A stretch of DNA of 64,000 nt from Gammaproteobacteria bacterium (lineage in GTDB: Bacteria > Pseudomonadota > Gammaproteobacteria > Eutrophobiales > Eutrophobiaceae). Positions within the stretch are counted from its first letter, which is position 1. Each line of letters begins with the position of its first letter. Location: assembly GCA_965204045.1 (NCBI GenBank), contig CBDBDW010000002.1, positions 2,754,610-2,818,609 on the forward strand, read 5' to 3'. The position numbers and the translations under genes were made by a program. Shown here piece after piece: positions 25,866 to 55,318 of this stretch. The notes under the pieces were generated by a model, which did not search any database, was not told the DNA's origin, and saw nothing but the letters and a program-made list of their open reading frames with translations.

Positions 25866-25869
25866 TTTC

Positions 25870-37823: not shown

Positions 37824-39038
37824 TCAATGCCAGAGCGTGCGCAATAACTTAGTGACCTCGGCCAGGCTTTCCAAGTTGTGTACGGGGAGGAAGTAATCCA
37901 GGAAGGGCAGGGCTGTTTGCATCCCTTTACACAGGGGTTGGTAGCTAGTGTTACCCAGCAACGGGTTCAACCAGATGATCTTGTTGACGCGCCGCCGCAG
38001 TTGTTCCATCTCGTTACGCATCAGGTCGGCGTCACCCTGGTCCCAGCCGTCACTCAGGATCACGGCGATGGTGTGGGAACTCAGCATCTGGTGGGCTTGT
38101 TGATCATTCAACTCGCGCAGGCAACCGCCGATATTCGTGCCCCCGGCCCAGTCATGCACCTGGTCCGACATCTGTTTAATCACCTCATCGATATCCCTGC
38201 GGTTCAGGTAAGGCGTAATGCTGGTCATGCGGGTCGAGAACACCGCGACTTCGATATTTGAGATATTCGCGCCCATGGCGCAGATGAGTTGAATCAGGAA
38301 CCGGCTGTAGCGCTCCATCGAACCGCTCACGTCGCAGAACAGGATGAGCTTGTTCTTCTTCAGCCGGTGGGTTTTATAAGCCAGTTTCAGGCAGTACTCC
38401 CCGTAAGGCATGCTGCGCCGGAATATCTTCCTGATATCAAGCTGCTGTCCCGATTTTGCCGGGCTGAAGCGCCGGCTCTTGCGATTCGCCAGGATGGCAA
38501 TCAATTCGGCAATGATCTTGCGGGCCTCATCCAGTTCCTTGTCAGTCATCCCGTCTATGTCTTTTTTCACCAGTAATTCATGGCTTGAATAACCGGTTTG
38601 TTCCGGATCGCCCTCATGTTCCTCCGCAGCACCCGGACCTTCCCCATCTGCGGGCTGGAACTGCTTTTGTAACTGCCGGGCTTCACCCGCGCCGTCGCCG
38701 TTTTCCTCTTCGCCGGCGGGGCGCTCGTCTTCAAATGGAATATCCTGGTTTTGCCAGTACTCACGGAACAGGAGGGCGAACAATTCCATGTCTTCCCTGT
38801 TGATAATCAGGGTCGCCAGGGCAGCCGCATAAAAATCTTCGTAATTGGCTATATCGATGTACAGGAGGCTGCGACTTAAATCGATCAGGTTGGCGGGATT
38901 GACGTCAATGCCTGCATCATGCAGTTTTCTACCGAAGCGGATGATGTGGGTGATGAACGGAAGCTCTTCCCGGCCGTTGTCCGTGCCGTCATTCCGGCCC
39001 AGGCCGGAACCCGGTAATGCAGGAGCATTAATCGCCAT
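37824..39038 (-). CDS. VWA-domain protein, CoxE-like (Mo-hydroxylase maturation)
   Basis: von Willebrand A motif with MIDAS residues (LILFCDVSGSMERYS). About 400 aa. It lies immediately downstream of a MoxR ATPase, as in coxD-coxE pairs. Confidence 0.8.
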   Translation of the reverse strand: MAINAPALPGSGLGRNDGTDNGREELPFITHIIRFGRKLHDAGIDVNPANLIDLSRSLLYIDIANYEDFYAAALATLIINREDMELFALLFREYWQNQDIPFEDERPAGEEENGDGAGEARQLQKQFQPADGEGPGAAEEHEGDPEQTGYSSHELLVKKDIDGMTDKELDEARKIIAELIAILANRKSRRFSPAKSGQQLDIRKIFRRSMPYGEYCLKLAYKTHRLKKNKLILFCDVSGSMERYSRFLIQLICAMGANISNIEVAVFSTRMTSITPYLNRRDIDEVIKQMSDQVHDWAGGTNIGGCLRELNDQQAHQMLSSHTIAVILSDGWDQGDADLMRNEMEQLRRRVNKIIWLNPLLGNTSYQPLCKGMQTALPFLDYFLPVHNLESLAEVTKLLRTLWH

Positions 39039-39041
39039 TAC

Positions 39042-39965
39042 TCAGTTGATGCTGCTCTGAGCGCCTAACGTCGGACCGCCTTTGAAATTCTTGGTGAGAG
39101 CCAGGGCCTTCTGCAGATTGCTACCGATGAGTTTTTCCTGATCTTGCTTATATTTAAGTATGCAACTTAATGTAGTTTCTATAATATCCTGCTCCAGTTC
39201 CTCAATACCCAGCGAGAGTAAGGCATTGGCCCAGTCAAGGGTCTCGGCGATACCGGGCCGCTTGTAGAAATCCTCCCGGCGTAACAACTCCATGAATTTG
39301 CACACCTGGATTGACAGCGTTTCCTTGATTTTCGGCACTTTTGTCAGGACGATGTTGAGCTCTTTTTCCAGGGTCGGGTAGTCGATCCAGTGATAAAGGC
39401 AACGGCGCTTGAGCGCATCGTGCATCTCCCTGGTCCGGTTGGAGGTCAATACCACGAACGGCGGTTGTTCCGCCTTGATGGTGCCTACTTCGGGTATGGT
39501 AATCTGGAAATCAGACAGCACTTCCAGCAGGAATGCTTCGAACTCGTCATCAGAGCGGTCAATTTCATCAATCAGCAGGACGGGACGTTTGCCGGGGGAC
39601 TGGATGGCCTGCAGCAGCGGTCTTTTCAGCAGGAACTGCTCATCGAAGATATTGGCGCCTATCTCCTTCTTGTCCACACCGCGGGCTTCCTGGAGCCGCA
39701 CCTCAAGCATTTGCCGCAGGTAATTCCATTCATACAATGCCAGGTTGGTATCAAGGCCTTCGTAACACTGCAGCCGGATGAGATCGGTATCCAGGCTTTT
39801 TGCCAGGACTTTGGCCACTTCGGTCTTGCCGACTCCCGGTTCCCCTTCCAGGTAAAGGGGTTTTCCCAGTGTCGTGGCCAGGTAAACAGTGGTCGCCAGG
39901 TGGCGGTCGGTGATATAGCCTTGCGTGGCGAATTTTTGCTCTATCTCTTCGATTGACTGAAACAT
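39042..39965 (-). CDS. MoxR-family AAA ATPase, CoxD-like
   Basis: Walker A LEGEPGVGKT, Walker B LLIDEIDRSDDEFEAFLLEVL, and the MoxR C-terminal region. Confidence 0.85.
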   Translation of the reverse strand: MFQSIEEIEQKFATQGYITDRHLATTVYLATTLGKPLYLEGEPGVGKTEVAKVLAKSLDTDLIRLQCYEGLDTNLALYEWNYLRQMLEVRLQEARGVDKKEIGANIFDEQFLLKRPLLQAIQSPGKRPVLLIDEIDRSDDEFEAFLLEVLSDFQITIPEVGTIKAEQPPFVVLTSNRTREMHDALKRRCLYHWIDYPTLEKELNIVLTKVPKIKETLSIQVCKFMELLRREDFYKRPGIAETLDWANALLSLGIEELEQDIIETTLSCILKYKQDQEKLIGSNLQKALALTKNFKGGPTLGAQSSIN

Positions 39966-40032
39966 TTTCCTGGGCCTGTTATGGTTGAATCCGGTATTTC
40001 AGGTACATGATTGCGCTGGATACGGTCCGGAA

Positions 40033-41028
40033 TTATAGAGGGCTTCCCTTGATATAACCACCGTTACCCATGCGCATGATGTCTTCCCGGGTGACGGGAA
40101 TACCCGCCAGCAGCCTCTCCAGCACCCAGTCAAAACCGTTCACCGCCGGAGAACGGGCGCATCCGGGCATGACTACTACCGGATGGCCGCCGGTAAATTC
40201 ACCCAGCGCCAGCAGGTTGCCCGGTTCCACCGGCATTCCCAGGTGTGTGATCCCGCCACCTGCCGTTTCGATTGCGACCGGAATTACATCACGGCGGTCG
40301 GCGGTGGCGCTGGCGCCGGTGATCAGGATCATTTCACTCCCGCCTTTCAACAGTTTTTCAAGTGCTTCAGCAATGGCGCCCTCTTCGTGCTCACAGCGAA
40401 TTTCCGAACTTACCCGGTTGTCCAGGCGTTGCAACCGGTTATCGAGTACGTCGCGGGTTTTGTCCAGGACAGCTTCTTTCATGCCCGGATAAAATGTCTG
40501 GATAAAGCCGATGTCCAGCCTGTTATAGCCGTTGATGTCAAGCAGGGGAGGGAGCCCGGACTGTATTTTTTCTATGCCTGACACACTCGCCTTATCCACA
40601 CCGTAGGGTATGATTTTCACCGTGGCGACTGCCTGTCCCTTGGTGACCGTTGAATACGGCGGCAATACCGCGAGGGTTATGGCTTCATCCGTCATGTTGA
40701 TACTGTCCAGGCGCTCGATGTCGTAAACCAGCAGTCCGGAGCTTTCCGCCATAATATTATTTCTGCCGGTACGGGGGCGTTGCGGGCGCACATTTTTCCC
40801 TGCGATGAAAACGGCTATGCGCCGCGCCGTTTCGTTTTCATCCAGGTCTGTGGCCTCAAGACGCGCGATGACCACCGATTCACACCCGGCGGCAGCAAGC
40901 AGCCTCACTTGCTCTTCAGACAGAACAGTGCCCTTTTTCAGGTTGATATCCTGGTATTTCACGGAATGGGCGAGAATGCCTCCTTCCGCCTCCGCAACCG
41001 GCATGCGACCGAATTTCATTGTTCTCAA
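40033..41028 (-). CDS. Molybdopterin-binding protein with MoeA/MoCF-biosynthesis-like domain
   Basis: C-terminal ILITGASATADRRDVIPVAIETAGG...GMPVEPGNLLALGEF...VVVMPGCARSPAVNGFDWVL resembles the MoeA/MogA MoCF domain (SGG.S.G..D ... PGKP ... LPGNP.S). Confidence 0.5.
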   Translation of the reverse strand: MRTMKFGRMPVAEAEGGILAHSVKYQDINLKKGTVLSEEQVRLLAAAGCESVVIARLEATDLDENETARRIAVFIAGKNVRPQRPRTGRNNIMAESSGLLVYDIERLDSINMTDEAITLAVLPPYSTVTKGQAVATVKIIPYGVDKASVSGIEKIQSGLPPLLDINGYNRLDIGFIQTFYPGMKEAVLDKTRDVLDNRLQRLDNRVSSEIRCEHEEGAIAEALEKLLKGGSEMILITGASATADRRDVIPVAIETAGGGITHLGMPVEPGNLLALGEFTGGHPVVVMPGCARSPAVNGFDWVLERLLAGIPVTREDIMRMGNGGYIKGSPL

Positions 41029-41173
41029 GTAACCCGCAGGGTAGTGTTCCGTTGTCGGGAAAAAGACTTGTCAACCTGTTATAATGCACACATATCACAA
41101 GCGATATCAATAATATCGTAAACAATCCTGCTCGGGTGCATGGCATTTCGCGCTGCTGACCGAATTTATCCAA

Positions 41174-42493
41174 ATGCGTGACTACATTGAAAAACTATCA
41201 GGACGCGGCGAGTTGCACGTGGTTGAGCGGGAAGTGGACCCCCGGTTCGAACTGGCCGCTGTCACTAGCCGTTCGCAAAAGGAAAGCGATTACCCTGTTC
41301 TGTTCAGGAACGTAAAGGGCACAAACCTGCCGGTGATCTCCAATATATACGGAAGCCACGCAAGACTGTGTGAAATTATCGGTACCACCAAGGGCAATTT
41401 CTGCCGGCACTGGCAGACGCTGGTGGATGATAACCCCGGTTCGGAGCACTCATACACCTGTGAGAGCGCAATGGAAGAAGAGCGCGTGGAAGGAAATATC
41501 AGTGATTTGCCCCACATTACTTATTTTGAGCGGGATGCCGGGCCTTATATCACCGCAGGCGTATTCCTGGCAAAGGAGCCGGACACGGGTGTGCCCAACC
41601 TGTCTTTCTGCCGCTCCATGATGGTCAGCGACGATGAACTGCGGGTGCGGCTGGCGCCTCCCCACGACATCACCCAATACCAGAAGAAGGCCGAAGCAAG
41701 AAGCCAGCCGCTGGAGGTGGCGATATTGATCGGACCCCCGCCGGAAGTGTTCATGGCAGCCTGCGCTTCGGTGCCGATTGAGCAGGATGAACTGGCTATT
41801 GCCGCCCGGCTGATGGGAACGCCTGTGCCGATGCGCCCGTGTCGCCGTATCGACATGCAGGTCCCGGCTGAGACCGAGATCGTGATTGAAGGCCGTATCC
41901 TGCCCCATGAGCGCAGACCGGAAGGACCGTTCGGTGAGTTCCAGGGATACTATGTCAAGCAGGCGGATAACCACGTGTTCGAAGTGCTGAACGTGAGTTG
42001 GCGCGAGGGAGCCTGTTTTCATGGTTTATTGTGCGGTTACATGGAGGACCTGCGCGCCCTGGAGGTTTCCTTTGCGACCCGCGTCTACAGGCATATCTCC
42101 GCGGGCGTGCCGGGCATCCTGGACGTGAGTTGTTATCCGACCCCGATGCATACCATCGTACAGATCCGGCCGGAATACGATGGGCATGCAAAACATGTCA
42201 TGCTCAAGGTTTTCAGCTCCCACCTGCAGTACAACAAAGTCTGCATCGTCGTGGATGGGGACGTGGACATCCATGATTTTGAGGACGTGTGGTGGGCGGT
42301 CATGACCCGGGGGCGTATAGACAAAGACATCATGACCCTGCCGGGAGTGCCGGGCTTTTTCCGCGACCCCGCCGGCGTTTATACGGGGCGGCTTGGGATC
42401 GATGCGACCAAACCCTTCGACATGCGCGAGAACTTCGAAAGGAAACGCGTGCCGGGCTTGCCGGAGATCAACCTGAAGGACTATTTCACCTGA
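41174..42493 (+). CDS. UbiD-family (prFMN-dependent) reversible decarboxylase
   Basis: The typical UbiD N-terminus (MRDYIEKLSGRGELHVVEREVDPRFELAAVTSR...PVLFRNVKG...PVISNIYGS) and full length (about 440 aa). Confidence 0.85.
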   Translation: MRDYIEKLSGRGELHVVEREVDPRFELAAVTSRSQKESDYPVLFRNVKGTNLPVISNIYGSHARLCEIIGTTKGNFCRHWQTLVDDNPGSEHSYTCESAMEEERVEGNISDLPHITYFERDAGPYITAGVFLAKEPDTGVPNLSFCRSMMVSDDELRVRLAPPHDITQYQKKAEARSQPLEVAILIGPPPEVFMAACASVPIEQDELAIAARLMGTPVPMRPCRRIDMQVPAETEIVIEGRILPHERRPEGPFGEFQGYYVKQADNHVFEVLNVSWREGACFHGLLCGYMEDLRALEVSFATRVYRHISAGVPGILDVSCYPTPMHTIVQIRPEYDGHAKHVMLKVFSSHLQYNKVCIVVDGDVDIHDFEDVWWAVMTRGRIDKDIMTLPGVPGFFRDPAGVYTGRLGIDATKPFDMRENFERKRVPGLPEINLKDYFT

Positions 42494-43525
42494 TCACGGG
42501 CGGCGCAGTATTTCGATGACTGCCTGCGTTATGGGATTGGCGTTCGACACAGTCCCGCGGCTGACACAGGAGTCAAAGCGCCGGTCAAGATCGCCGGCAT
42601 CCAGTTCCCCTGCTGCGCCTATCGCGACGATGCGGGATGAAGGCGTCATTTCATGCCAGGGTGCGCCTTTTGCCAGGGTCACGCGTTTGCCCGTCATTTG
42701 CAGGATTACCTGTTTGTCCGGTACTTCACGGAGCTGCAGGATGCCCTTGCAGCGGAATACGGACAAGGGCAATGATTGAAACGTGCCGTAAGCGGATTCA
42801 AAATCCAACGGTGCATCACTTTGCCATGAATAACCGGCATAGGCATGGGTATGATCTGCGTGCCCGTGGCTTTCATGTCCGTGAGACCCTGCCGTTGTGC
42901 CGGCAAATGCGAAAGTCCGGTCTTCATGAAGGCTCAGGCCAAGCAGTAATTCCAAAGGAACATCAGCGCGAACTGCTTCGATAATACGTGATCTTGGCGC
43001 TATCTCCTTTATATGTCTGGAAACCTGTTCACTCGTGCCGGTATCGGCCAGGTCGATCTTGTTGATGATGGCGATATCGGCGACTTCGATCTGGTCTTCA
43101 GCCAGCTTCCCATTCAACTCGTCCAGTTCCAGCACCTCACTGGCGTCGACCACGGTGATAATGCCATCCAGTTGCGTTGCCGCGGCCAGGTCGGTCGACA
43201 TCACGATGGCCATGGCTGCGGTCTTCGGGTCGGACACGCCGCTCATTTCCACGACGATCATTTCAGGGTCGGGGTCCATTTGCAGAAGTTGTTGTATGGC
43301 TTCTACGAGATCATCGCGCATATTGCAACATACGCACCCATTGGTCAGGCTGATGGTTTCGCCTTCAACCCGGGTAATGAGTTGCGCATCGATGTTGATT
43401 TCTCCGAAATCATTCACCAGCACCCCGATACGCCGGCCATGTTGGCCGTTAAGTATGCGGTTAAGCAGTGTCGTTTTCCCGGAGCCGAGAAAACCGGCCA
43501 CGAGGCTGACGGGTACTTTATTCAT
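42494..43525 (-). CDS. CobW/COG0523-family GTPase metallochaperone
   Basis: MNKVPVSLVAGFLGSGKTTLLNRIL (P-loop), the CxCC metal-binding motif (NGCVCCNMRDDL), and a His-rich stretch SHGHESHGHADHTH. Start taken at the ATG at 43525. Confidence 0.85.
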   Translation of the reverse strand: MNKVPVSLVAGFLGSGKTTLLNRILNGQHGRRIGVLVNDFGEINIDAQLITRVEGETISLTNGCVCCNMRDDLVEAIQQLLQMDPDPEMIVVEMSGVSDPKTAAMAIVMSTDLAAATQLDGIITVVDASEVLELDELNGKLAEDQIEVADIAIINKIDLADTGTSEQVSRHIKEIAPRSRIIEAVRADVPLELLLGLSLHEDRTFAFAGTTAGSHGHESHGHADHTHAYAGYSWQSDAPLDFESAYGTFQSLPLSVFRCKGILQLREVPDKQVILQMTGKRVTLAKGAPWHEMTPSSRIVAIGAAGELDAGDLDRRFDSCVSRGTVSNANPITQAVIEILRRP

Positions 43526-43621
43526 TCTGCTCTGCGCCGGTGATGCGTTAATCATGTGCTTAATTGTCAATCATATTATTAACGATTATACTCAGGAAAT
43601 TCTTAATTCCCGATTCGGATT

Positions 43622-45013
43622 ATGAACTGTGACCTGTTAATCAGCAACGGTAATATAGTCACTGCGGAAAAAACCTTTCCAGGGTATATCGCCGTTACCG
43701 GTGGCAGGATAAGCGCCATGGGCCAGGGCGATGCCTCCATGGGTGCGGCACGGGAAATTGATGCCGGCGGTCGGCATATCATGCCAGGCGTTATCGATCC
43801 TCACGCGCACCTGGGCTACATGGATACTCTGGAAGCCGTGGAAACCGAGACCAGGGCCGCGGCTTGCGGTGGCGTCACGACGCTGGGGGTTTATATCCTG
43901 GCGCTGAAAGAAGGGCTGTTGAGACAGTTCGAGAATTTCAGAAATACCTTCGAACAAAGGAGTTTTATCGATGGTTTCTGGCACCTGATGGTCATTGACG
44001 CCATCACCACCAGTGAAATTGAAACCTGTCCCGCTGAAGTCGGCCTGACCTCTTTCAAGTTCAACATGGGCTACAAGGGTCCCCACGCAGACCTGATTGG
44101 CATCACCGCGACCGATGACGGAGCGGTGTACAAGGGTTTTCGTATGATCAACAGGTCCGGTCCTCCCAGTCTTGCCGCGTGCCATACGGAGAATATCGAC
44201 ATCCACCTGATGCTGAGAGACGAACTGATCGCCCAGGGCCGCAACGACTTTGCGGTTTGGAATGAATCGCGCCCCCCGTTCGTGGAGGCGGAATGCATGC
44301 GCAGGGCAATATATCTCGCTGAAAGCGCCGGTTGCCCGTTGTATATACCCCATATCACCATTGCCGAAGGCGTGGATATCATAGCAGAGGCTCGGGAGAG
44401 AGGTATTGAGGTAACTGGAGAAACCTGCCCGCAGTACCTGACCCATAACGGCGAGGAACCGGCCCGGGTGTTGCTGGATCATCCCGCCTGCGCCTGTGTC
44501 AATCCGCCGCTCCGGGACAAGGCGTCCAATGCAAGGTTATGGGAGGGGATAGCTGATGGAACCATTCAGTGTGTCGGTTCCGACCTGGCCCCCACGACCC
44601 TGGCGATGAAAGGAGACGATATCTGGAATGCGCCCATGGGACTGGGTAATACATCGGAGTTGTTACTGCCGATTATGCTCAGCGAAGGTGTCAACAAGGG
44701 TCGCATCAGCCTGGAACAAGTGGCCGAAATCTGTGCCCTCAACCCGGCCAGGGTATTCGGCATCTACCCGCGCAAGGGCCGGTTGGCTGTCGGCGCTGAT
44801 GCGGATATCGTCATCGTCGACCTGGATAAGGAAGTTACGGTAAAAACTGAAAACCTGCGCAGCATGTGTGACTGGAGTATCTATGACGGCTGGACACTGA
44901 AAGGCTGGCCTGTCCATACGGTATTACGGGGCCGGGTCATAGTCGGGGAGGGAGAGCCCGATGCGCTGCAGCCCGGGCAGGGCATGTATATTTCCCGCAA
45001 TGACATCAACTGA
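43622..45013 (+). CDS. Cyclic amidohydrolase of the dihydropyrimidinase/hydantoinase/allantoinase family
   Basis: Metal ligands HIMPGVIDPHAHLGY (HxH). The carbamylatable Lys context TSFKFNMGYKG. About 460 aa with D-hydantoinase family architecture. Confidence 0.8.
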   Translation: MNCDLLISNGNIVTAEKTFPGYIAVTGGRISAMGQGDASMGAAREIDAGGRHIMPGVIDPHAHLGYMDTLEAVETETRAAACGGVTTLGVYILALKEGLLRQFENFRNTFEQRSFIDGFWHLMVIDAITTSEIETCPAEVGLTSFKFNMGYKGPHADLIGITATDDGAVYKGFRMINRSGPPSLAACHTENIDIHLMLRDELIAQGRNDFAVWNESRPPFVEAECMRRAIYLAESAGCPLYIPHITIAEGVDIIAEARERGIEVTGETCPQYLTHNGEEPARVLLDHPACACVNPPLRDKASNARLWEGIADGTIQCVGSDLAPTTLAMKGDDIWNAPMGLGNTSELLLPIMLSEGVNKGRISLEQVAEICALNPARVFGIYPRKGRLAVGADADIVIVDLDKEVTVKTENLRSMCDWSIYDGWTLKGWPVHTVLRGRVIVGEGEPDALQPGQGMYISRNDIN

Positions 45014-45031
45014 CATCCTGACGCGGCTACG

Positions 45032-45919
45032 ATGATCCCGGAACAATATCGCAGGTATGAAGATACTGTCTCCCTGGGCTGTGTCAACTACCGGAGTATC
45101 TGGAACGACAAGGCTGCAAGCCTTGCCAAGGTCAAAAAGCTGATCACGGAAGCGGCACAGCAGGGGGTCAACATCCTGGCATTCCCGGAACTGTCCCTGA
45201 GCGGCTATGAGAGCGATGAAGACAATACCATGCACCGGGAGTTTGCCGAGACCATTCCCGGGCCGGTAACCGAGGAAATTGCCGAGTTGACCCGGCGCCT
45301 GGATATCTACGTGGTGCTGGGCATGCCGGAACGCAGCGCCGAGGATGACGGTACCTGTTATATCTCCTGTCCCCTGCTCGGCCCTGAAGGTTTAATCGGC
45401 GCCTATCGAAAACTGCATCTTGGCACACCGCCGCTGTTCAGGGAGAGCCTGTGTTTTACCGGCGGCAGCCGGGTTCCGGTGTTTGAGACCCGTTATGGTC
45501 CGATCGGAATTCAGATCTGCGCCGATTTCTGGGTCTTTCCCGAACTGTGCCGCATCCTGATGTTGAAGGGTGCGCGCATCATCATCAACAGCACCGCCAG
45601 TATGGCCATGCCGGGCAGGCCATTTTACATCACGACCATGACCGCGGCGCGGGCAACGGAGAACCTGGTATACACGGCCAGCGCCAACCTGGTTGGGAAA
45701 GAGAATACCTTGTCCTATTATGGCTGCAGTACCATCGCCGGGCCGGACTACCCGCGCTTTTCCCATGTGTACGCGCAGGCCGGGGACAAGGAGGAGATTA
45801 TCAGCGCCGAGTTGAGTTTTACCAGGCTCCATGAATTTCGCGATGCCCTGGCGCTGGAAAAAATCAGGCGTTCTGACGTGATTGACGATGAGTTTGAACA
45901 GGTGAAGAGGAATATCTGA
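45032..45919 (+). CDS. Carbon-nitrogen hydrolase (nitrilase superfamily; N-carbamoyl-amino-acid amidohydrolase / beta-ureidopropionase-like)
   Basis: Catalytic triad contexts ILAFPELSLSGY (Glu), AYRKLHL (Lys) and GIQICADFWVFPE (Cys). Confidence 0.8.
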   Translation: MIPEQYRRYEDTVSLGCVNYRSIWNDKAASLAKVKKLITEAAQQGVNILAFPELSLSGYESDEDNTMHREFAETIPGPVTEEIAELTRRLDIYVVLGMPERSAEDDGTCYISCPLLGPEGLIGAYRKLHLGTPPLFRESLCFTGGSRVPVFETRYGPIGIQICADFWVFPELCRILMLKGARIIINSTASMAMPGRPFYITTMTAARATENLVYTASANLVGKENTLSYYGCSTIAGPDYPRFSHVYAQAGDKEEIISAELSFTRLHEFRDALALEKIRRSDVIDDEFEQVKRNI

Positions 45920-46785
45920 TGGAGTATTACAGTCCCACCGAGCTTGATCATGCCTACGCGTTGCTGGATAAATACGGTGATGGCGCCGTGCCCATTGCCG
46001 GCAGCACGTTTTTTATGAGCCACAGGGAAGAGTTGTTCGACGAGGCCGATGCCGTGATTGACATCAAGAGGCTGGGTTTGAACTATATCCGTCTGGATGA
46101 TGACGGGTTGCATATCGGCGCCACAACTACCTTCAACGAGATATTTGGCCACAAGCTCACCAGGGGCGGCCGGTACGCGATCTTGTCCGATACAGCGGGT
46201 GAGCTTAACACCAATGAGGTGCGGAACATGGCGACTATCGGCGGCGTGGTGTGTGTCGCCGGCGAAGTGGACATGCCGACGAGCCTGCTCGCCTGCGACG
46301 CCAATATCGTCATTGGCAGCAGCAGGGGAACCCGCGCCATGTCCACGTCGGAGTTTCATGTCGGCTACCTGAACAACGCCCTGGAGGAAGGTGAGATGGT
46401 GCTGGAAGTACATGTGCCGCAACCACCCGCAAATACCGGCGCTGGTTTTGCAAAATTTCAAAGAACCGCGGCAGACCTGCCGCTTGTCAACGTGGCAACC
46501 CGTGTGTCGCTGGACGGGACCGGCGCCTGCAGCGAGGCGCGGGTCGTCGCGGGGGCGTCGACATCATCCGGCGTGCCGGAACGCTCCGCGGCGGCAGAAG
46601 CCGTCCTGCTCGGCGGGATAATCGATGACGCACTGATTGAAAGCGCGGCAGCCGTGTCGAACGACATCGAATGCGTCAATGATTTCCGCGTCTCTGCGGA
46701 AGTCCGGCAATTGTGGGTGCGCTGCGGTGTGGAGGACACATTGAAACGGGCGGCTGCCCGGGCGCGGCAGGGAGGTGAAGCATGA
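45919..46785 (+). CDS. Molybdenum hydroxylase FAD-binding (medium, CoxM/XdhB-like) subunit
   Basis: FAD_binding_5 pattern (VPIAGSTFFM...ATIGGVV) and the CO-dehydrogenase-flavoprotein C-terminal domain. The ATGA overlap suggests translational coupling with the upstream gene. Confidence 0.8.
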   Translation: MEYYSPTELDHAYALLDKYGDGAVPIAGSTFFMSHREELFDEADAVIDIKRLGLNYIRLDDDGLHIGATTTFNEIFGHKLTRGGRYAILSDTAGELNTNEVRNMATIGGVVCVAGEVDMPTSLLACDANIVIGSSRGTRAMSTSEFHVGYLNNALEEGEMVLEVHVPQPPANTGAGFAKFQRTAADLPLVNVATRVSLDGTGACSEARVVAGASTSSGVPERSAAAEAVLLGGIIDDALIESAAAVSNDIECVNDFRVSAEVRQLWVRCGVEDTLKRAAARARQGGEA

Positions 46786-47270
46786 ACGCAATCAGTTTGA
46801 AGATAAACAACGAGGGCTACGATGTGCCGGTCAAACCGCACTGGTCGCTGGCATACGTTATCCGGGAGAAAATAGGACTGACCGGCACCAAGGCAGGTTG
46901 CGAGATGGGCACCTGCGGTTCCTGCACCCTGCTGCTGGACGGCAAGCCGATTTTTTCCTGCCTGCGCATGGCGATCGACGCCCAGGGCAGCGACATACGC
47001 ACCATTGAAGGGCTGGAGGAGGAGAACAACGGCGAACTGCACCCCTTGCAGGAAGCGTTCATACAGGACCACGGCATGCAGTGCGGTTTCTGCACCCCCG
47101 GGATGATCCTGGCGGCAAAACACCTGCTGGACCATAATCCTGACCCCACCGAACAACAGGTGCGCGAGGCCATAGGCGGCCACCTGTGCCGCTGCGGCAC
47201 CTACGTCAGGATCGTCAAGGCAATAATGAACGCGGCCGAAACCATGCGCAGTGCGCAAGCGACTCAATAA
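46782..47270 (+). CDS. Molybdenum hydroxylase (2Fe-2S) small subunit (CoxS-like)
   Basis: GCEMGTCGSCTLLLDG ... CGFCTPGMILAA ... CRCGTYVRI. Confidence 0.85.
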   Translation: MNAISLKINNEGYDVPVKPHWSLAYVIREKIGLTGTKAGCEMGTCGSCTLLLDGKPIFSCLRMAIDAQGSDIRTIEGLEEENNGELHPLQEAFIQDHGMQCGFCTPGMILAAKHLLDHNPDPTEQQVREAIGGHLCRCGTYVRIVKAIMNAAETMRSAQATQ

Positions 47271-47288
47271 TTGAAGAGGTAGAGAGAA

Positions 47289-49595
47289 ATGCCATCTGAA
47301 ACATCCGTCGTCGGAAAAAGCTTACCCTTGCTGGATGCCTATGAAAAAGTCACCGGCAGGCTCAAGTATGCCGGTGATTTACCTTCAATGCACCGCATGC
47401 ACCACGCTAAAGTGCTGCGCAGTCCCTATGCCCATGCGAAAGTGGCGCATATCGATACCTCTGCCGCCGAGGCCTTGCCGGGAGTCAGCGCGGTCATCAC
47501 CCACAAGGATGATATAACCGGGAAAAAGAAGACCTGCGGCTCCCCATGGCATGATTTCAGTTTCAACTTCATGGGGCCCATGATCTCTCCGGAAGTCTGT
47601 TACGTAGGTGACGAGGTCGCAGTCGTGTCTGCGGTGGACGAGGAAACCGCAAAGGAAGCCCTCAAACTCATAGAAGTGGAATACGAGGAATTGCCTGCCG
47701 TATTCGATATGGAAGAGGCGATGAAAGAGGGCGCGCCGCAGGTACGGCCGTGGGGGCCGAACAGCCTCCCGCCTTCGCTGTTTGAATGGGGAAACATCGA
47801 GGAGGGTTTCGAACAGGCCGATTACATCATTGAAAACCGCATCACCCTGGGCAACCAGCAGCATGCGCCGCTGGACAGGAATGCCTGTATCGCCCACTGG
47901 GAAGGAGACAGTGTTTCCCTGTGGACATCCACCCAGGCCCTGTTCTGGATCAGGGACGCGGTCACCGGGTTTTTTGAACTCTCGCCCAGCAAGGTCAGGG
48001 TCTACAGCACGCCTACCGGCGGGTCATTCGGCCTGTGGTGGGGTAATAATTTCATGTTGCTGGCGATTGCCGTCGCCAGGAAGGCGCGCCGTCCGGTACG
48101 GCTGGTGCTGACGCGGGATGAGGTCCAGACCACGGTGAAGCGGCGCGAGCGCCCGTTGATCGACGCGAAGATCGGGATAACAAAGGACGGCAAAATGGTT
48201 TCACAGTCATACCGCCACCTGATGGATAACGGCGCCTACGGCAATAAATTCGATCCGTACCAGTCCGTTGCCGATATCTACACCACCGAGCATGCCAGGG
48301 TGGAGTTCATAGGCGTGGCGACCAATCTGCTGCCTGCCGGGTGCATGCGCGGGGTGGGAGACCTGACACTGGCCTACGCCATCGAGCAGACGGTGGACAT
48401 GGCGGCGGAAAGGGTCGACATGGACCCGGTCGAGTTTCACCTGAAAAACCATTGGCAGACCGGCGACATCTGTCACACGTCCCAGGAAGTCGTGTTCGCC
48501 AAGCTGCTGTTCAACAAGAACCCGCAGGTGGAGTTGACCAGTTCAGGGCTGGCGGAGTGCATCACCCGTGGGGCCGAAGCCATGGACTGGAAGAACAAGT
48601 GGAAAGGATGGGGCACACCGTCATCGGTGGACGGCCACAAGGTGCGCGGCGTCGGCATGGGCATCTCCACCCATATCAGCGGCCTGGCCTTCTTCGGTTT
48701 CAACGGCATCACCGTCAAGGTCAACCCGGACGGCACCATGGCGCTGACCACGGGCATCGGGCGCATGGGGCAGGCGGGCGATACCACCCAGGCCATGGTG
48801 TGCGCCGAGGTCCTGGGCGTGGAACTGGAAGACGTCAACGTGATCGACGGCGACACTGAAGTCTGCGGGCATACCATGGTCACCTTCGGCAGCAACGGCA
48901 TGCACATGGTGGCGCGCGCCACCAAGGCCGCGGCGGAACACGCCAGGGAGCAGATACTGGAATACGCGGCAAGGCACCTGGAAGCCAATGCTGCCGATCT
49001 CGATATCAAGGACCGCCGGGTCTTCGTGAAGGGCAGCGAGGAGCGCGGAGTCACCCTCAAGGAACTGATGAGCACCCCGATCTACGAGTACCTGGCGGCG
49101 CCGGAAGTGATAGGCAGTGCCTCCAAGGGGGTGGAGTTCGAGAAGGCCGGCAAGATGATGATGGCGGATTTCGCCGAGGTGGAGATCGATACCCGCACCG
49201 CACAGATGAAACTCATTAAATTCGTCGCCGTGCACGACAGCGGCACCATCGTCAACCCGGCGGTGTGCGAGAACCAGGTTGCCGGCGGATACTACCAGTC
49301 CATGGGCCTCTCTACTACGGAACACCTGGTGTTCGATGATGAGACCGGCGCCATCCTTAACCCGAATTTTACGGACTACAAACTCATGGGACCCCTGGAC
49401 ATGCCCGACCCGGAGATCATGTTTGAGGAGGTCTACGACGAACACGGCCCGTTCGGGGCGAAAGGGATAGGCGAGGGCGTCACCTGCGCGGTGCCCATCG
49501 CCATATCCAACGCCGTGTACAACGCGATCGGCGCCCGGCTTGACCCACCCATTACACCGGATAAGATATTGCAGGCATTGAAATCAAAATCCTGA
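47289..49595 (+). CDS. Molybdenum hydroxylase molybdopterin-binding large subunit (xanthine dehydrogenase/aldehyde oxidase family)
   Basis: N-terminal a/b hammerhead (VGKSLPLLDAYEKVTGRLKYAGD). About 770 aa, with MoCo-binding family blocks (GGSFG, ...). Confidence 0.85.
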   Translation: MPSETSVVGKSLPLLDAYEKVTGRLKYAGDLPSMHRMHHAKVLRSPYAHAKVAHIDTSAAEALPGVSAVITHKDDITGKKKTCGSPWHDFSFNFMGPMISPEVCYVGDEVAVVSAVDEETAKEALKLIEVEYEELPAVFDMEEAMKEGAPQVRPWGPNSLPPSLFEWGNIEEGFEQADYIIENRITLGNQQHAPLDRNACIAHWEGDSVSLWTSTQALFWIRDAVTGFFELSPSKVRVYSTPTGGSFGLWWGNNFMLLAIAVARKARRPVRLVLTRDEVQTTVKRRERPLIDAKIGITKDGKMVSQSYRHLMDNGAYGNKFDPYQSVADIYTTEHARVEFIGVATNLLPAGCMRGVGDLTLAYAIEQTVDMAAERVDMDPVEFHLKNHWQTGDICHTSQEVVFAKLLFNKNPQVELTSSGLAECITRGAEAMDWKNKWKGWGTPSSVDGHKVRGVGMGISTHISGLAFFGFNGITVKVNPDGTMALTTGIGRMGQAGDTTQAMVCAEVLGVELEDVNVIDGDTEVCGHTMVTFGSNGMHMVARATKAAAEHAREQILEYAARHLEANAADLDIKDRRVFVKGSEERGVTLKELMSTPIYEYLAAPEVIGSASKGVEFEKAGKMMMADFAEVEIDTRTAQMKLIKFVAVHDSGTIVNPAVCENQVAGGYYQSMGLSTTEHLVFDDETGAILNPNFTDYKLMGPLDMPDPEIMFEEVYDEHGPFGAKGIGEGVTCAVPIAISNAVYNAIGARLDPPITPDKILQALKSKS

Positions 49596-49670
49596 GTGAG
49601 TCGTATCACCTGGGCAGGCTTAAATCGTCCCCGGCAGAATATCACTGACCGAACAGAGACAAGTTAACAA

Positions 49671-50327
49671 ATGCAGGATCTGGATGCAGCAGTAGAACAG
49701 TTAAAACGGGACATCTTCCAGGGGCGTTTCGTGCCCGGACAGCGCCTGGTGGAGGTGGATATCATGTCTCACCTGGAAATAACCAGGGGGAGGGTGCGCG
49801 ATGTTTTCAAACGCCTGCACGCCGAGGGGATCGTGCAGCTTGACAGGAACCGCGGCGCCTCGGTCCGCAAGGCTTCCCGGGAGGAGGTATTCGATATCTT
49901 CGAGGTGCTGGAGGAGATCTCCATCCTGATTATCCGGAAAATCGGCAGCCGGGTTGGGGACAAAGACATGCAGCGGCGCCTGCGCGCATCCCTCAACGCA
50001 GCCCGGAAATTCCATGACAGGTCGGTCAATATCATCAAGGTGCCGGAATACATGGATGAGAACGCCCGTTTCTGGGGCGACCTGGCCGACCTGGCCGGCA
50101 ACCCGGTACTGTCGGAGATCAGGTTACGCCTGCAGGCCCCCTTGTTCAGGCTGGCGATGGAGGGCCTGACCGTAAGCGGCAGTCATGAACAGTGGATCGC
50201 CCGGCACGAGGAGATCATCAGCGCCCTGCTGGACGACAATACCGGTCACGCAGTGCGCCACGCCAGAAAGTCCATGCACGACGTCTGGAAAGCCATCCTG
50301 GGACTGCCCGACAGCGCGTTCGCCTGA
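49671..50327 (+). CDS. GntR-family transcriptional regulator (FadR/FCD subfamily)
   Basis: N-terminal winged helix-turn-helix (GQRLVEVDIMSHLEITRGRVRDVFKRLHAEGIV) plus a C-terminal all-helical FCD-like domain. Confidence 0.85.
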   Translation: MQDLDAAVEQLKRDIFQGRFVPGQRLVEVDIMSHLEITRGRVRDVFKRLHAEGIVQLDRNRGASVRKASREEVFDIFEVLEEISILIIRKIGSRVGDKDMQRRLRASLNAARKFHDRSVNIIKVPEYMDENARFWGDLADLAGNPVLSEIRLRLQAPLFRLAMEGLTVSGSHEQWIARHEEIISALLDDNTGHAVRHARKSMHDVWKAILGLPDSAFA

Positions 50328-50353
50328 GAATATTATGCCCGGTCGTCCGGGGA

Positions 50354-51652
50354 TCAAATCCTGACCACATAATAATAAACATGCAGCGCCAGGGTGCAGA
50401 CGAGCGCCATGGCAAGGACATAGCCCGCGTTCCAGCGCATGATTGCAAACGAGGAGACCCCGAACCTGCCCTGTATGGCCAGGTTGATGCCGGACAGGGG
50501 TGAGCCGACTATGCTGGTGCCCCACATCATCAGCATGCATGCGCCGAGCAGGTCCGGATTATAGGCGGCATTGCCGAGCAGGCTGCCCAGTATTGAGATG
50601 GTGATGATGGGGTGGACGCCGATGAGCGACAGCAGGACAGCCGCCACGATGAAAGCGCTGCCGGTGAGAGGTGTTACGGTTGTCAGTCCCAGGGAGATAT
50701 CACTGTTCATCAGCACGGCGGTTATCCCTACCGACATGAACCCGGCGGCAAGGAACAGCATCAGTTCCTTGTGCATATCCGGAAGCTCGTCAACGATATG
50801 GGCGCCGATGCGGTGAAATACCGTAAGCGGTCCGCGTACAGCCAGCATCAGCAATGCCAGCAGGAACGACAACACGGTTATCAGGGTGAGCACCGGGAAG
50901 TCCGGGAATACGTTGTGCAACAGGATAACCGCCGCGCACAGCAGGACGGGGATAAACAGGGCCTCGAAGCGTAGCGGGTAGCCGCAGGTGTCCCGGCCTT
51001 CCTTGTCCCGCGCCAGTTGCCAGGTGGTAATGAACAGCCCCGCCAGGGCGACGGGCAGCCCCGCCAGCATCAGGGTGGGGAAGTCCGAACCGGGGGCATA
51101 CACCAGGGCGGTGGCGATGGAGACATAAAACGGCGACCAGTACGCCCCGCTGGCGAATGCCCGGGAAAACATGACGGCCTGCAGCCGGTTGATCTTCCCC
51201 GCCTGCTCCATACGGTTGCCGAACAGCATGACCGCGGACAGGTTGATCACCGTGGCGAACACGTGCAGTCCCCAGGCAGTCTTCACCAGCGCCCTGTTGC
51301 CCCTGGGCAGCGTTGTCCCCGACTCGTCACCCGGGAGGCTGATCAGGCGCAGGAAGGTGACCGAGGCGATCAGGGCAATGATATGGATGTTTGCGGAGGC
51401 CAGCCTGACAAAATCCACGGGGTGGCCATTGAGCATGACCCAGGCGAGACAACCGAGGCCGGCCAGCAGCATGCTCGAGATCTGGTAGATCATGGCCCGG
51501 GGCAGGCGGTGAAATAACATAATGGCCGCCGCCCACCCGGCGAGGCCGGACCAGAGCGGAGATACCTGGGAGGACGTCGCCGCCGGGACCGCCAGCAGCG
51601 CCATGACAAACAGCAAGGCGCCCGGCAATCTGGCCGTCAGGGATTTATCCAT
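50354..51652 (-). CDS. Polytopic inner-membrane transporter-like protein, family not assigned
   Basis: 432 aa with about 12 predicted hydrophobic helices. Adjacent to the GntR regulator and convergent with it. Confidence 0.55.
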   Translation of the reverse strand: MDKSLTARLPGALLFVMALLAVPAATSSQVSPLWSGLAGWAAAIMLFHRLPRAMIYQISSMLLAGLGCLAWVMLNGHPVDFVRLASANIHIIALIASVTFLRLISLPGDESGTTLPRGNRALVKTAWGLHVFATVINLSAVMLFGNRMEQAGKINRLQAVMFSRAFASGAYWSPFYVSIATALVYAPGSDFPTLMLAGLPVALAGLFITTWQLARDKEGRDTCGYPLRFEALFIPVLLCAAVILLHNVFPDFPVLTLITVLSFLLALLMLAVRGPLTVFHRIGAHIVDELPDMHKELMLFLAAGFMSVGITAVLMNSDISLGLTTVTPLTGSAFIVAAVLLSLIGVHPIITISILGSLLGNAAYNPDLLGACMLMMWGTSIVGSPLSGINLAIQGRFGVSSFAIMRWNAGYVLAMALVCTLALHVYYYVVRI

Positions 51653-51674: not shown

Positions 51675-52502
51675 TCAGCCCGCTTCGAGTAAAAAGTCGC
51701 TGACCAGTTGATTGAAACGCCGGTTGTGTTCTATCTGGGTCCAGTGGCCGCAGTTGCCGAAAATATGCAGTTGCGAGTTTTTGATACACCTGAACATGTG
51801 TTCGGAAACTGACACGGGGATAATCCGGTCGTCCCGGCCGTGGATAATCAAGGCCTCATGTTCGATGTTGCTGACGTCGTCTTCGTTGCTGCAGATTTTC
51901 CGGATGCCGTCCTGGCGCGGCGCCGGAAACATCGCTGCATAGGACTCCTGCACTCCAGGCCGGATACTGGCCTCATACCTGAGCCGGGCCAGTTCATCAT
52001 TTACCAGTGAACGATCATAGGCAAACAGGTCCAGCAACCGGCGCATATTCTCAATCGAGGGTGTATAACCCCAGGTCAGGTCCAGGCCTTCCGTCAATTC
52101 GAACTCCAGGCCGACGCTGCCCATGAGCACCAGGCGGGAAACCCGCTCCGGCGCGTGGATCGCCAGCGCTACGGCCAGGGCTCCGCCGAAGGAATTGCCG
52201 ACCACGTGGGCCTGTTCAATCTCCATGGCGTCCAGGAAATCCAGCGCGTGCCTGAGCCAGGTCTCCATGTCATAACGGATGCCGTCAGGTCGTTCGGTAA
52301 ACCCGAACCCCGCGATGTCGGGTGCGATCACGCGAAAGTTCTCCGCCAGGCTGGGGAGCACCAGGCGCCAGTTGGCCCAGGCGCTGACGCCGGGTCCCGA
52401 CCCGTGCAGCAGCAGCACAGGGTCGCCCGCCCCCTGGTCATGATAATTGGTCGTGATGCCGCCGGCATTGATGGAGGAACCGATTTCCGGAGAAGCGCTC
52501 AT
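51675..52502 (-). CDS. Meta-cleavage product hydrolase (2-hydroxymuconate-semialdehyde / HOPDA hydrolase family, DmpD/XylF/BphD-like alpha/beta hydrolase)
   Basis: TNYHDQGAGDPVLLLHGSGPGVSAWANWR...VIAPDIAGFGFTERP, and the nucleophile elbow VVGNSFGG. Confidence 0.8.
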   Translation of the reverse strand: MSASPEIGSSINAGGITTNYHDQGAGDPVLLLHGSGPGVSAWANWRLVLPSLAENFRVIAPDIAGFGFTERPDGIRYDMETWLRHALDFLDAMEIEQAHVVGNSFGGALAVALAIHAPERVSRLVLMGSVGLEFELTEGLDLTWGYTPSIENMRRLLDLFAYDRSLVNDELARLRYEASIRPGVQESYAAMFPAPRQDGIRKICSNEDDVSNIEHEALIIHGRDDRIIPVSVSEHMFRCIKNSQLHIFGNCGHWTQIEHNRRFNQLVSDFLLEAG

Positions 52503-52591
52503 TGATGTATCCTTGTCCGAGAGATTATTATTAGCTGAATATTATCAATCATTATATAGAAAAACGGTATTCTGATGCGAGGTCGAAGTCC

Positions 52592-53320: not shown

Positions 53321-53331
53321 GGGACGAGCCG

Positions 53332-53688: not shown

Positions 53689-53764
53689 ATGTTGAATTTA
53701 TCGATATTTTCTGAAAAAATCGATATTATTTGTTTCCGGGCATGACAAAGAGAAAAAAACGGGT

Positions 53765-54025: not shown

Positions 54026-54035
54026 GAGCAGTCAG

Positions 54036-55031: not shown

Positions 55032-55035
55032 AGTC

Positions 55036-55308: not shown

Positions 55309-55318
55309 TCCGAGACAA

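Follow-up and report, generated by a model that had tools for sequence, protein, structure and literature searches.

We analyzed a gene cluster at positions 37824-51652 of a 64,000-nucleotide stretch of gammaproteobacterial DNA (contig CBDBDW010000002.1, positions 2,754,610 to 2,818,609; the whole stretch is called the window below). An operon in this cluster encodes a cyclic amidohydrolase, a carbon-nitrogen (C-N) hydrolase and the three subunits of a molybdenum hydroxylase, and around it lie genes for a UbiD-family decarboxylase, a COG0523 GTPase, molybdenum-enzyme maturation proteins, a GntR/FCD regulator and a membrane protein. We observed the gene families, intact catalytic residues, tight packing of the operon and co-conservation of its genes, and these suggest, with a probability of roughly 0.6, that the cluster specifies an O2-independent route by which a small N-heteroaromatic compound would be hydroxylated, hydrolyzed and then deamidated. 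The route would probably serve nitrogen and carbon acquisition. Molybdenum hydroxylases enable bacteria to attack aromatic N-heterocycles without oxygen, and new pairings of a molybdenum hydroxylase with a ring opener have so far each revealed a new catabolic route (lumazine in 2025; xanthinase and reductive urate in 2023-2025). An earlier sequence-only reading had proposed an undescribed N-heterocycle catabolic locus here; our data support such a candidate at the level of the module, while its substrate and the order of its steps are not established.

The two hydrolases are conserved together with the molybdenum hydroxylase

Genome loci were anchored on the large subunit of the molybdenum hydroxylase and metagenome contigs on the amidohydrolase; both are designated by L numbers. 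Twenty-four genome loci had a large subunit at least 72% identical to that of the window. The amidohydrolase gene was present in all 19 that had sufficient upstream sequence, and the same 19 also carried the C-N hydrolase gene; in the remaining five, the contig stops short of the amidohydrolase position. A further 55 loci were paralogous, with a large subunit at most 48% identical; in these the amidohydrolase was never found and a C-N hydrolase was found once, at 29% identity. On metagenome contigs with an amidohydrolase at least 72% identical and downstream sequence present, the C-N hydrolase gene adjoined it in 14 of 14 cases, and the molybdenum genes followed on the contigs that reached that far, except L101.

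The trio was also kept where the large subunit was 49-54% identical, in L089 and L090 (sediment/groundwater contigs) and L091 (a Chloroflexi metagenome-assembled genome, MAG), and in the metagenome contig L112, where it was 39% identical. Identity to the window's proteins in the distant loci was 40-48% for the amidohydrolase and 48-51% for the C-N hydrolase, well above their similarity to characterized hydantoinases and nitrilase-superfamily enzymes. In L089, L090 and L091 the C-N hydrolase gene adjoins that of the amidohydrolase, and its product is 49-51% identical. The identities of the amidohydrolase, C-N hydrolase and large subunit co-vary (Spearman 0.93-0.94, n=21). Thus the proposal that the two hydrolases belong with the molybdenum enzyme is borne out by 19 of 19 loci as well as by the distant lineages. 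Because the arrangement recurs in dozens of independent contigs, it is not due to chance, and the co-conservation defines the amidohydrolase, the C-N hydrolase and the molybdenum hydroxylase as the core module. We also considered that a hydantoinase/carbamoylase pair had come to lie next to a CO or xanthine dehydrogenase by accident, and the co-conservation across phyla ruled this out.

Near-identical whole clusters were found in other Gammaproteobacteria MAGs, for example OZ244846.1 (large subunit 99% identical). The isolate names of several related MAGs hint, as names alone, at sponge or coral metagenomes, and the bacterium of the window is probably sponge-associated. With a range from such sponge- and coral-type gammaproteobacterial MAGs to Chloroflexi, the module may explain how communities recycle a common nitrogen-rich metabolite.

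Five genes form one operon

Each gene listed in the sequence-only reading proved to be an intact open reading frame at the coordinates given for it and, in Pfam and NCBIfam scans, to belong to the family named for it. The operon comprises five + strand genes at 43622-49595. An 18-nt spacer separates the genes of the amidohydrolase (43622-45013) and the C-N hydrolase (45032-45919), the latter overlaps the gene of the FAD-binding subunit (45919-46785) by 1 nt in a TGATG junction at 45919, a 4-nt ATGA overlap at 46782 leads into the gene of the [2Fe-2S] subunit (46782-47270), and a second 18-nt spacer, which carries GAGG, precedes the gene of the molybdopterin-binding large subunit (47289-49595). 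No terminator-like site was found on the + strand inside 43622-49595. The 18-nt spacers and the 1-nt and 4-nt overlaps led us to regard the five genes as one packed unit. The earlier claim of a single operon therefore stands, but the number of genes is five rather than four, the spacing is 18 nt rather than 19 bp, and the ATGA overlap that had been placed at 45919 sits at 46782. In most relatives a coxG gene (SRPBCC) lies between the C-N hydrolase and FAD subunit genes (e.g. L007 8150-8620); it was lost in the window, in L014 and in L019, and the 1-nt junction at 45919 is what this loss leaves.

The best sigma-70-like match on the + strand of the region, TTGTCA-17-TATACT (10 of 12), lies just 5' of the amidohydrolase gene, and a possible promoter-like site with the palindrome ATTGTCAAT can be placed, on weak evidence, at 43563-43592 (+), 5' of the operon. 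The total of promoter-like sites in the region was not above that of shuffled sequences. The palindrome is single in the 64-kb window, and we judged it, together with some ATCAC repeats, unconvincing as a shared GntR operator. No Rfam family matched in the cluster, and thus no riboswitch or other RNA gave a clue to the ligand.

The molybdenum hydroxylase belongs to a distinct clade

All three subunits matched their Pfam domains above the cut-offs (PF00941 and PF03450 for the FAD subunit, PF01799 and PF00111 for the [2Fe-2S] subunit, and PF01315, PF02738 and PF20256 for the large subunit), which identifies a three-subunit enzyme of the xanthine oxidase/molybdenum hydroxylase type. The NCBIfam equivalog cut-offs were reached by none of ten cluster proteins, and we therefore ruled out that the cluster is already covered by a known purine or pyrimidine annotation. 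The top NCBIfam match of the large subunit was XdhA-type xanthine dehydrogenase (XDH; NF043082) with 485.8 bits against a cut-off of 780. Scores against the other XDH equivalogs (score/cut-off) were 460/916 for PRK09970, 310/784 for pucD and 237/850 for xdhB, those against two CoxL equivalogs were 304 and 269 bits (cut-offs 950 and 991, respectively), and that against the 4-hydroxybenzoyl-CoA reductase alpha equivalog was 451.9 bits (cut-off 994.55). The best solved relative was also 4-hydroxybenzoyl-CoA reductase alpha, at 299 bits, and identity to E. coli XdhA was 30%. The earlier reading had allowed that the large subunit might cluster tightly with a characterized enzyme; no close one was found. 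Its best plasmid match was a lumazine-type enzyme of Sinorhizobium meliloti pSymB, at 36.5-38% identity.

The catalytic Gln/Arg/Glu set is intact in the molybdenum subunit, and GIGEG and NQQH are conserved in the alignments; we take the three residues to correspond to Gln767, Arg880 and Glu1261 of bovine XDH. The XDH motif GGGFGGKE is replaced by GGSFGLWW, with Trp at the purine-binding Glu position, presumably that of bovine Glu802. The clade shares the signature G-x-S-x-G-L-W-W..NF, AGCMRGVGD and DNG(A/G)YG (GGSFGLWW, AGCMRGVGD and DNGAYG in the window), which is common to L089 and L091 and absent from E. coli XdhA and the S. meliloti LuDH-like protein. The loop AGCMRGVG is not known as that of a CO dehydrogenase, and the FAD subunit (288 aa) appears shorter than its counterpart in 4-hydroxybenzoyl-CoA reductase, a beta subunit that bears a [4Fe-4S] cluster. 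These features suggest that the enzyme represents a separate clade within the xanthine oxidase family.

The ring opener, its putative metallochaperone and the C-N hydrolase

The amidohydrolase appears to form a distinct subfamily of the dihydropyrimidinase/hydantoinase family and would be the ring opener. Its best NCBIfam match, TIGR02033, scored 320.6 bits, under the cut-off of 393.25, and its best solved relatives were D-hydantoinases at about 240 bits. Aligned to 1K1D, it keeps all the metal ligands (HxH, carboxylated Lys, His, His, Asp) and Tyr155, whereas two substrate contacts are altered (Ser288 to Asn and Asn336 to Met), 7 residues are inserted after Tyr155 and 4 residues are deleted from the first substrate loop. 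Homologues at most 42% identical occurred in unrelated gene contexts, which marks the boundary of the family.

Divergent from the amidohydrolase gene, in the window and in nearly all related loci, is the gene of a COG0523 (CobW-family) GTPase (42494-43570, - strand; PF02492 and PF07683), which was present in most of the 19 loci. The protein shares 32-36% identity with the CobW-type GTPase encoded in the lumazine-type cluster of S. meliloti. It is probably the metallochaperone of the adjacent amidohydrolase, by analogy, because the GTPase of a lumazine cluster raised both the solubility and the activity of a Zn amidohydrolase (PMC12391406). Its pairing with a dihydropyrimidinase-type enzyme would be the second case of a dedicated amidohydrolase metallochaperone in such clusters.

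The C-N hydrolase (PF00795, 165 bits) is a nitrilase-superfamily protein that would hydrolyze an amide or carbamoyl group and release NH3. Its Glu-Lys-Cys triad is intact, since PELSLSGY, YRKLHL and ICAD align with the triad of PH0642. Against solved structures it scored 115-119 bits with PH0642 and an archaeal nitrilase, 105 bits with Nit2, and 45-64 bits with carbamoylases (DCase and beta-ureidopropionase); the NCBIfam aguB model gave 107.7 bits. The earlier label "carbamoylase-like" is thus not established, because omega-amidase and archaeal nitrilase types are at least as close.

Different UbiD decarboxylases are found near the module

The UbiD gene (41174-42493, + strand) encodes a 439-aa, HmfF-like decarboxylase of the prenylated FMN (prFMN)-dependent family. 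The protein scored 324.9 bits against TIGR00148, above the cut-off of 244.85, contains the domains PF20695, PF01977 and PF20696, and conserves the NxSxxR and EGPFGE motifs. Its best solved relative was the Pelotomaculum HmfF homologue 6h6v, at 232 bits. No UbiX homologue was found by tblastn in the 64-kb window, and UbiX is presumably encoded elsewhere in the genome.

A copy of this UbiD, 66-98% identical, was present in 17 of the 19 genome loci in which the amidohydrolase was detected. Other lineages carry other kinds. A VdcC-like UbiD of about 534 aa lies directly 3' of the molybdenum subunit gene in two loci (L001, L022) and no more than about 10 kb downstream in three others (L016, L017 and L020), and UbiDs of 445-512 aa lie near the module in L003, L091 and L110; the three types (439, about 534 and 445-512 aa) are only 26-33% identical among themselves. 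In L089 and L090, no UbiD was found within 10 kb of the module. Relatives of the window's UbiD at 50-59% identity occurred in quite different gene clusters, and in one of these, the Anaerolineae contig L084, a 57%-identical UbiD lies beside ATP-dependent hydantoinase/oxoprolinase genes and a molybdenum large subunit.

Because different UbiD subfamilies occur near the module in different lineages, decarboxylation looks like a recruited feeder step, and repeated recruitment would fit a peripheral feeder better than a fixed internal step. The sequence-only reading had put decarboxylation first. The non-orthologous UbiDs fit that placement in that they suggest a feeder role, but they fall short of proof, and the order itself is an inference.

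A proposed pathway and its substrate

Every chemical step and the order of the steps are what we infer from the genes. The three-subunit molybdenum hydroxylase, matured by CoxD/CoxE-like proteins, would insert a water-derived oxygen beside a ring nitrogen and thereby convert the aromatic ring to a cyclic amide, ureide or imide. The dihydropyrimidinase-like amidohydrolase, a predicted binuclear-metal enzyme loaded by the COG0523 GTPase, would then open the ring, and the C-N hydrolase would cleave the resulting carbamoyl or amide group to yield ammonia, together with CO2 if the group is carbamoyl. UbiD would strip a ring carboxylate, most likely as a feeder that turns a carboxylated derivative into the core substrate, and the GntR/FCD protein would control expression. 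Such a route could run without O2 as long as the molybdenum enzyme has an electron acceptor, in line with the finding of the module in genomes from groundwater, sediment and Chloroflexi; one of the contigs carries anaerobe-type genes.

We lean towards a nucleobase-like diazine ring as the substrate, because dihydropyrimidinase is the family that the ring opener matches best. Counted in the same direction were an NCS1 cytosine/purine/uracil/allantoin-type permease in the Chloroflexota variant L003, a TauD/TfdA-family Fe(II)/2-oxoglutarate dioxygenase encoded between the molybdenum subunit and GntR genes of L024 (12382-13200), and the fact that the S. meliloti lumazine-type enzyme is the nearest plasmid relative of the molybdenum subunit in a cultured organism. 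The leading single candidate, put forward tentatively, is a conversion of uracil or thymine to barbiturate and then to ureidomalonate, possibly fed by orotate or 5-carboxyuracil.

Several points weigh against the model as a whole. The C-N hydrolase appears no closer to carbamoylases than to omega-amidase types, and the amidohydrolase departs from dihydropyrimidinases at the two substrate-contact positions and two loops described above. As to barbiturate in particular, it is a resonance-stabilized anion at neutral pH, the sole barbiturase known to us has a different fold (AtzD family), and no malonate- or urea-utilization genes are conserved near the module. Every full-module locus is an uncultured MAG or metagenome contig: neither the species-representative genome scan nor the plasmid collection yielded a cultured host, and the best plasmid matches other than that of the large subunit (amidohydrolase 40% and UbiD 56% identical) were in unrelated contexts. 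L089 and L090 have no UbiD gene within 10 kb of the module and L001 has no C-N hydrolase gene, so neither gene is strictly obligatory. As for the proposed order of steps, the UbiD of the lumazine pathway works after ring processing (PMC12391406).

A substrate with a five-membered ring would be the first alternative, and we consider it unlikely. Here an HmfF-like UbiD and the molybdenum hydroxylase would act on an imidazole or pyrrole carboxylate. In the imidazole version, imidazole carboxylate would be converted to imidazole, hydantoin, N-carbamoylglycine and finally glycine, and in the pyrrole version, pyrrole-2-carboxylate would pass through a 5-oxo lactam and 2-oxoglutaramate to 2-oxoglutarate, as a nitrogen analogue of the furoate/5-hydroxymethylfurfural (HMF) pathway. 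The best solved relative of UbiD is indeed a 2,5-furandicarboxylate decarboxylase homologue (the 232-bit match), the gene company of its 57%-identical relative in L084 points the same way, and the best characterized relative of the C-N hydrolase is the omega-amidase Nit2, whose substrate is 2-oxoglutaramate. Glycine and 2-oxoglutarate need no dedicated enzymes, in keeping with the absence of other conserved catabolic genes, and pyrrole carboxylates are common in sponge and coral sources of the kind at which the MAG names hint. However, molybdenum hydroxylases attack electron-poor carbons, and pyrrole and imidazole are poor targets for them without an activating group. A CoA ligase is not among the conserved genes of the cluster. 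Moreover, the 50-59% identical UbiD relatives lie in quite different contexts, so the specificity of this subfamily is not fixed.

Less likely still is a purine pathway of the xanthinase type, in which the molybdenum enzyme would form xanthine, the amidohydrolase would convert it to a ureidoimidazole carboxylate, the C-N hydrolase would remove the carbamoyl group and UbiD would decarboxylate the aminoimidazole carboxylate. These four activities correspond to a reaction sequence known from biochemistry (PMC3519856, PMC12507026), and XdhA-type XDH is the top NCBIfam match of the large subunit (485.8 bits). The large subunit nevertheless missed the XdhA cut-off of 780 bits, shares just 30% of its residues with E. 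coli XdhA and carries Trp in place of the purine-binding Glu. Decarboxylation would be integral to such a pathway, yet the UbiDs are non-orthologous and absent near L089 and L090; two further hydrolases that it requires are not conserved nearby, and reports of it are limited to Clostridia and Bacilli.

We regard as improbable a pterin or lumazine variant, in which the molybdenum enzyme would di-hydroxylate the pyrazine ring of a pteridine-type compound, the amidohydrolase and C-N hydrolase would replace the isomerase DHLI and cleave a cyclic oxamide, and UbiD would take the carboxyl group of a xanthine-8-carboxylate-like product. The architecture is that of cluster I of Cupriavidus sp. LA-1 and of its counterpart on S. 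meliloti pSymB, whose large subunit is the best plasmid match of the window's, but the cluster contains neither a homologue of DHLI (an Amidohydro_2 pair) nor a pterin deaminase, identities to the S. meliloti counterparts are low (UbiD 31%, GTPase 32-36%, large subunit 37-38%) and the active-site signature differs.

Finally, we set little store by a pyridine or cyclic-imide route, in which one or two molybdenum hydroxylations of a pyridine carboxylate plus decarboxylation would give 2,6-dihydroxypyridine (glutaconimide) or a similar compound for the amidohydrolase as imidase and the C-N hydrolase as half-amidase: dihydropyrimidinase-type enzymes do hydrolyze cyclic imides, the C-N hydrolase comes closest to enzymes of the omega-amidase type, a second molybdenum-enzyme set is present in L003, L022, L024, L027 and L089, and a decarboxylase-type Amidohydro_2 gene adjoins the UbiD gene in L091 and L110, but no glutaconate- or maleate-utilization gene is conserved nearby, and the ring is cleaved by different chemistry in the known pathways for nicotinate, picolinate and isonicotinate.

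Accessory genes and neighborhood

Three - strand genes at the left edge of the cluster are predicted to serve maturation of the molybdenum enzyme. The CoxE-like VWA protein (37824-39038; PF05762 VWA_CoxE, 168 bits) scored 63 bits, under the cut-off, against the NCBIfam MadC VWA model, and the CoxD/MoxR-type AAA+ ATPase (39042-39965; AAA Pfam families) scored 274 bits against the MadB-family ATPase (cut-off 475). A coxE-like gene adjoins the module in most related gammaproteobacterial loci with a far enough upstream flank, and coxD-like copies in related loci were 65-99% identical. The gene at 40033-41028, found in just part of the related loci, had been called MoeA-like. It does show a match to a molybdopterin-binding domain, but the label is loose, since PF00994 MoCF_biosynth gave 25.9 bits, under its cut-off of 26.6; its product is a putative cofactor carrier or insertion factor.

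On the other side of the operon, the GntR/FCD gene (49671-50327, + strand; PF00392 and PF07729) is probably the local regulator. It was found in nearly all of the 19 loci, and in nearly all related gammaproteobacterial loci it lies directly 3' of the molybdenum subunit gene, 58-99% identical. The gene at 50354-51652 (- strand), earlier read as a permease, does encode a polytopic membrane protein, as judged from its hydrophobic sequence, and may be a transporter, but it is accessory and confined to the closest clade (loci with a large subunit at least 88% identical). This 432-aa protein belongs to an orphan family: no Pfam or NCBIfam family matched it, a collection of 5.8 billion proteins held 81 homologues, nearly all derived from MAGs, and one homologue (Zobellella) carries the UniRef label DUF401.

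Other molybdoenzymes and iron-sulfur proteins lie near the module in related loci. A reductive-dehalogenase-like iron-sulfur protein (TIGR02486, 102 bits, under cut-off) is encoded directly 3' of the 534-aa UbiD in L001 (14105-15118), and a homologue of it lies near the module in L027 (19397-20449); a link of the module to halogenated substrates is possible from this. Bis(molybdopterin guanine dinucleotide) (bis-MGD) oxidoreductases with an Fe4S4 domain are encoded near the module in L022 (18476-21202), L024 (17536-19572), L089 (1-848) and L091 (16019-18589), and in L089 and L091 they are accompanied by NMT1-type binding proteins or a transporter of the major facilitator superfamily. We read these as nitrate-assimilation-type genes, which hint weakly at nitrogen acquisition. 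The NMT1-type binding proteins of L089 and L091 were considered as a pyrimidine clue and set aside, as they stand beside the bis-MGD molybdoenzymes.

Adjoining the locus is a soluble diiron monooxygenase cluster at 51675-58414, a separate aromatic/alkene oxidation system. It encodes a HsaD/BphD-like meta-cleavage-product hydrolase (51675-52502, - strand), a second alpha/beta hydrolase (52592-53320), a DUF6616 protein (53332-53688), two Phenol_Hydrox subunits (54036-55031 and 55393-56919; the second also contains a YHS domain) and a Fer2/FAD/NAD reductase (57350-58414). The hydrolase at 51675-52502 was rejected as a member of the N-heterocycle pathway because its HsaD/BphD-like character places it with the downstream monooxygenase genes. 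At 21239-30461, genes for a TonB-dependent receptor, an alcohol dehydrogenase of the pyrroloquinoline quinone (PQQ) type that includes a cytochrome c domain, a DsbA-like protein, an AMP-dependent ligase, a cupin and a homologue of linalool dehydratase/isomerase (Ldi; 25870-27531) may form a monoterpene or alcohol utilization cluster. L001, too, has an Ldi gene (1-220), some 10 kb away from its related module.

Elsewhere in the window, two RTX calcium-binding repeat proteins, one with a serralysin C-terminal domain, are encoded at 32140-33309 and 35572-37125, with an AAA ATPase gene (33342-34511) between them, and a DUF5615 protein (37126-37557, - strand) is encoded at the cluster edge. The gene at 9348-10586 (- strand) fuses a CTP-dependent riboflavin kinase domain (PF01982), which we take to be of archaeal type, to a HAD-family hydrolase domain, and at 11216-12735 (- strand) a D12-class N6-adenine DNA methyltransferase is encoded beside an unassigned 180-aa open reading frame.

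Comparison with known systems

The closest design is that of lumazine/pterin cluster I of Cupriavidus sp. LA-1, which encodes LuDH, DHLI, XCDC and the GTPase LA1_0143 (Doi et al. 2025, PMC12391406). These are, respectively, a three-subunit molybdenum dehydrogenase (xanthine oxidase family, unclassified branch), a Zn amidohydrolase that is an Amidohydro_2 heterodimer acting as an isomerase, a UbiD decarboxylase that goes with UbiX, and the GTPase whose effect on the Zn amidohydrolase was cited above (PMC12391406). The S. meliloti pSymB locus L172 (CP073680.1 142879-155981) fits the published description of the Rhizobiales lumazine cluster; it contains FAD-FeS-Mo subunit genes, a CobW-type GTPase, an NCS2 permease, a UbiD, two Amidohydro_2 genes and a cytosine-deaminase-like gene, one of its Amidohydro_2 proteins lacks the N-terminal metal site, and the record annotates these genes generically.

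Like the lumazine cluster, the window combines a three-subunit Mo/FeS/FAD hydroxylase, a metal amidohydrolase served by a CobW-type protein, a UbiD, a local regulator and a transporter, and in both O2-independent hydroxylation would precede a hydrolytic processing of the ring. On pSymB the subunit genes likewise run in the order FAD-FeS-Mo, and both CobW-type GTPases have the PF02492 and PF07683 domains. However, the window has a dihydropyrimidinase-type protein and a C-N hydrolase in place of the heterodimeric Amidohydro_2 isomerase, and, unlike the lumazine cluster, lacks a pterin or cytosine deaminase. The pSymB DHLI-like Amidohydro_2 pair matched nothing in the window and nothing in the module loci; the Amidohydro_2 genes of L091 and L110, considered as lumazine isomerase genes, showed no similarity to that pair and were rejected. 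Given the identities to the pSymB proteins listed above and the active-site motif, which is LWW in the window and AKQ in the pSymB protein, orthology to the lumazine cluster was ruled out and the architecture is analogous. Thus, as judged from these comparisons, the two share a design and appear not to be the same pathway. The sequence-only reading knew no described pathway with this combination of genes, and our full-text literature search likewise found no description of it; the lumazine precedent, having the same architecture, nevertheless lowers the claim to categorical novelty.

The clostridial xanthinase purine pathway (Rabinowitz), when set beside the window by description, offers the same set of activities. 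It includes a xanthine dehydrogenase family enzyme, a ring amidohydrolase and a ureido hydrolase, and has been reported solely from Clostridia and Bacilli (PMC3519856, PMC12507026). It differs in its two further hydrolases (for aminoimidazole and imidazolone), neither of which is conserved in the module loci, and the window's molybdenum subunit lacks the purine-binding Glu. The NCBIfam scan of the cluster proteins brought up no model for this pathway. Genes of that pathway, including one for a prFMN-dependent decarboxylase, were reportedly described by Tong et al. in 2023.

In the HMF/furoate pathway (HmfF/HmfG, HmfABC), a UbiD, a three-subunit molybdenum hydroxylase and hydrolytic ring opening occur together, as in the window, but the window has N-specific hydrolases instead of the CoA ligase or thioester hydrolase of that pathway. 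No furoyl-CoA synthetase or CoA-thioester hydrolase was found among the conserved cluster genes; the AMP-ligase gene at 28392-29915 is about 8 kb off the cluster edge, in a different cluster, and UbiD matched the solved HmfF homologue at no more than 232 bits. The cox clusters of aerobic CO dehydrogenase share coxD, coxE and the L/M/S architecture, and also coxG with most relatives of the window, while the large subunit is far below the CO dehydrogenase cut-offs (304 vs. 950 and 269 vs. 991 bits).

The reductive pyrimidine pathway and the D-hydantoinase/D-carbamoylase pairs (PydB/PydC, HyuH/HyuC) couple a dihydropyrimidinase-family opener to a second hydrolase, as in the window, and in some organisms that hydrolase is a nitrilase-superfamily carbamoylase. 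Unlike the reductive pathway, the window has no dihydropyrimidine dehydrogenase and has a molybdenum hydroxylase in the operon instead. Furthermore, its amidohydrolase is below the dihydropyrimidinase cut-off and has altered loops, and its C-N hydrolase scores 45-64 bits against the solved carbamoylases.

The logic of the module is also that of the oxidative pyrimidine pathway of Rhodococcus erythropolis, in which uracil/thymine dehydrogenase hydroxylates, barbiturase opens the ring and ureidomalonase hydrolyzes the ureido product. Uracil/thymine dehydrogenase is said to have been purified from Rhodococcus as a three-subunit Mo/FAD/FeS enzyme. To our knowledge its genes have been unassigned for decades, and our literature search found no gene report for it. 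The known barbiturase has the AtzD/cyanuric acid hydrolase fold, whereas the ring opener of the window is of the dihydropyrimidinase type, and Pfam and NCBIfam scans found no AtzD-family match among the cluster genes; UbiD, present in the window, is not part of that pathway. It is conceivable, though doubtful, that the module represents a pathway without assigned genes, made up of the orphan molybdenum uracil/thymine dehydrogenase, a dihydropyrimidinase-type "barbiturase" and a nitrilase-superfamily ureidomalonate/malonamate hydrolase, or else an unrecognized O2-independent N-heterocycle route. In either case it would be widespread among uncultured symbionts and bacteria of groundwater and sediment. 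Should uracil or thymine prove to be the substrate, the module would supply the genes of a long-orphan enzyme activity.

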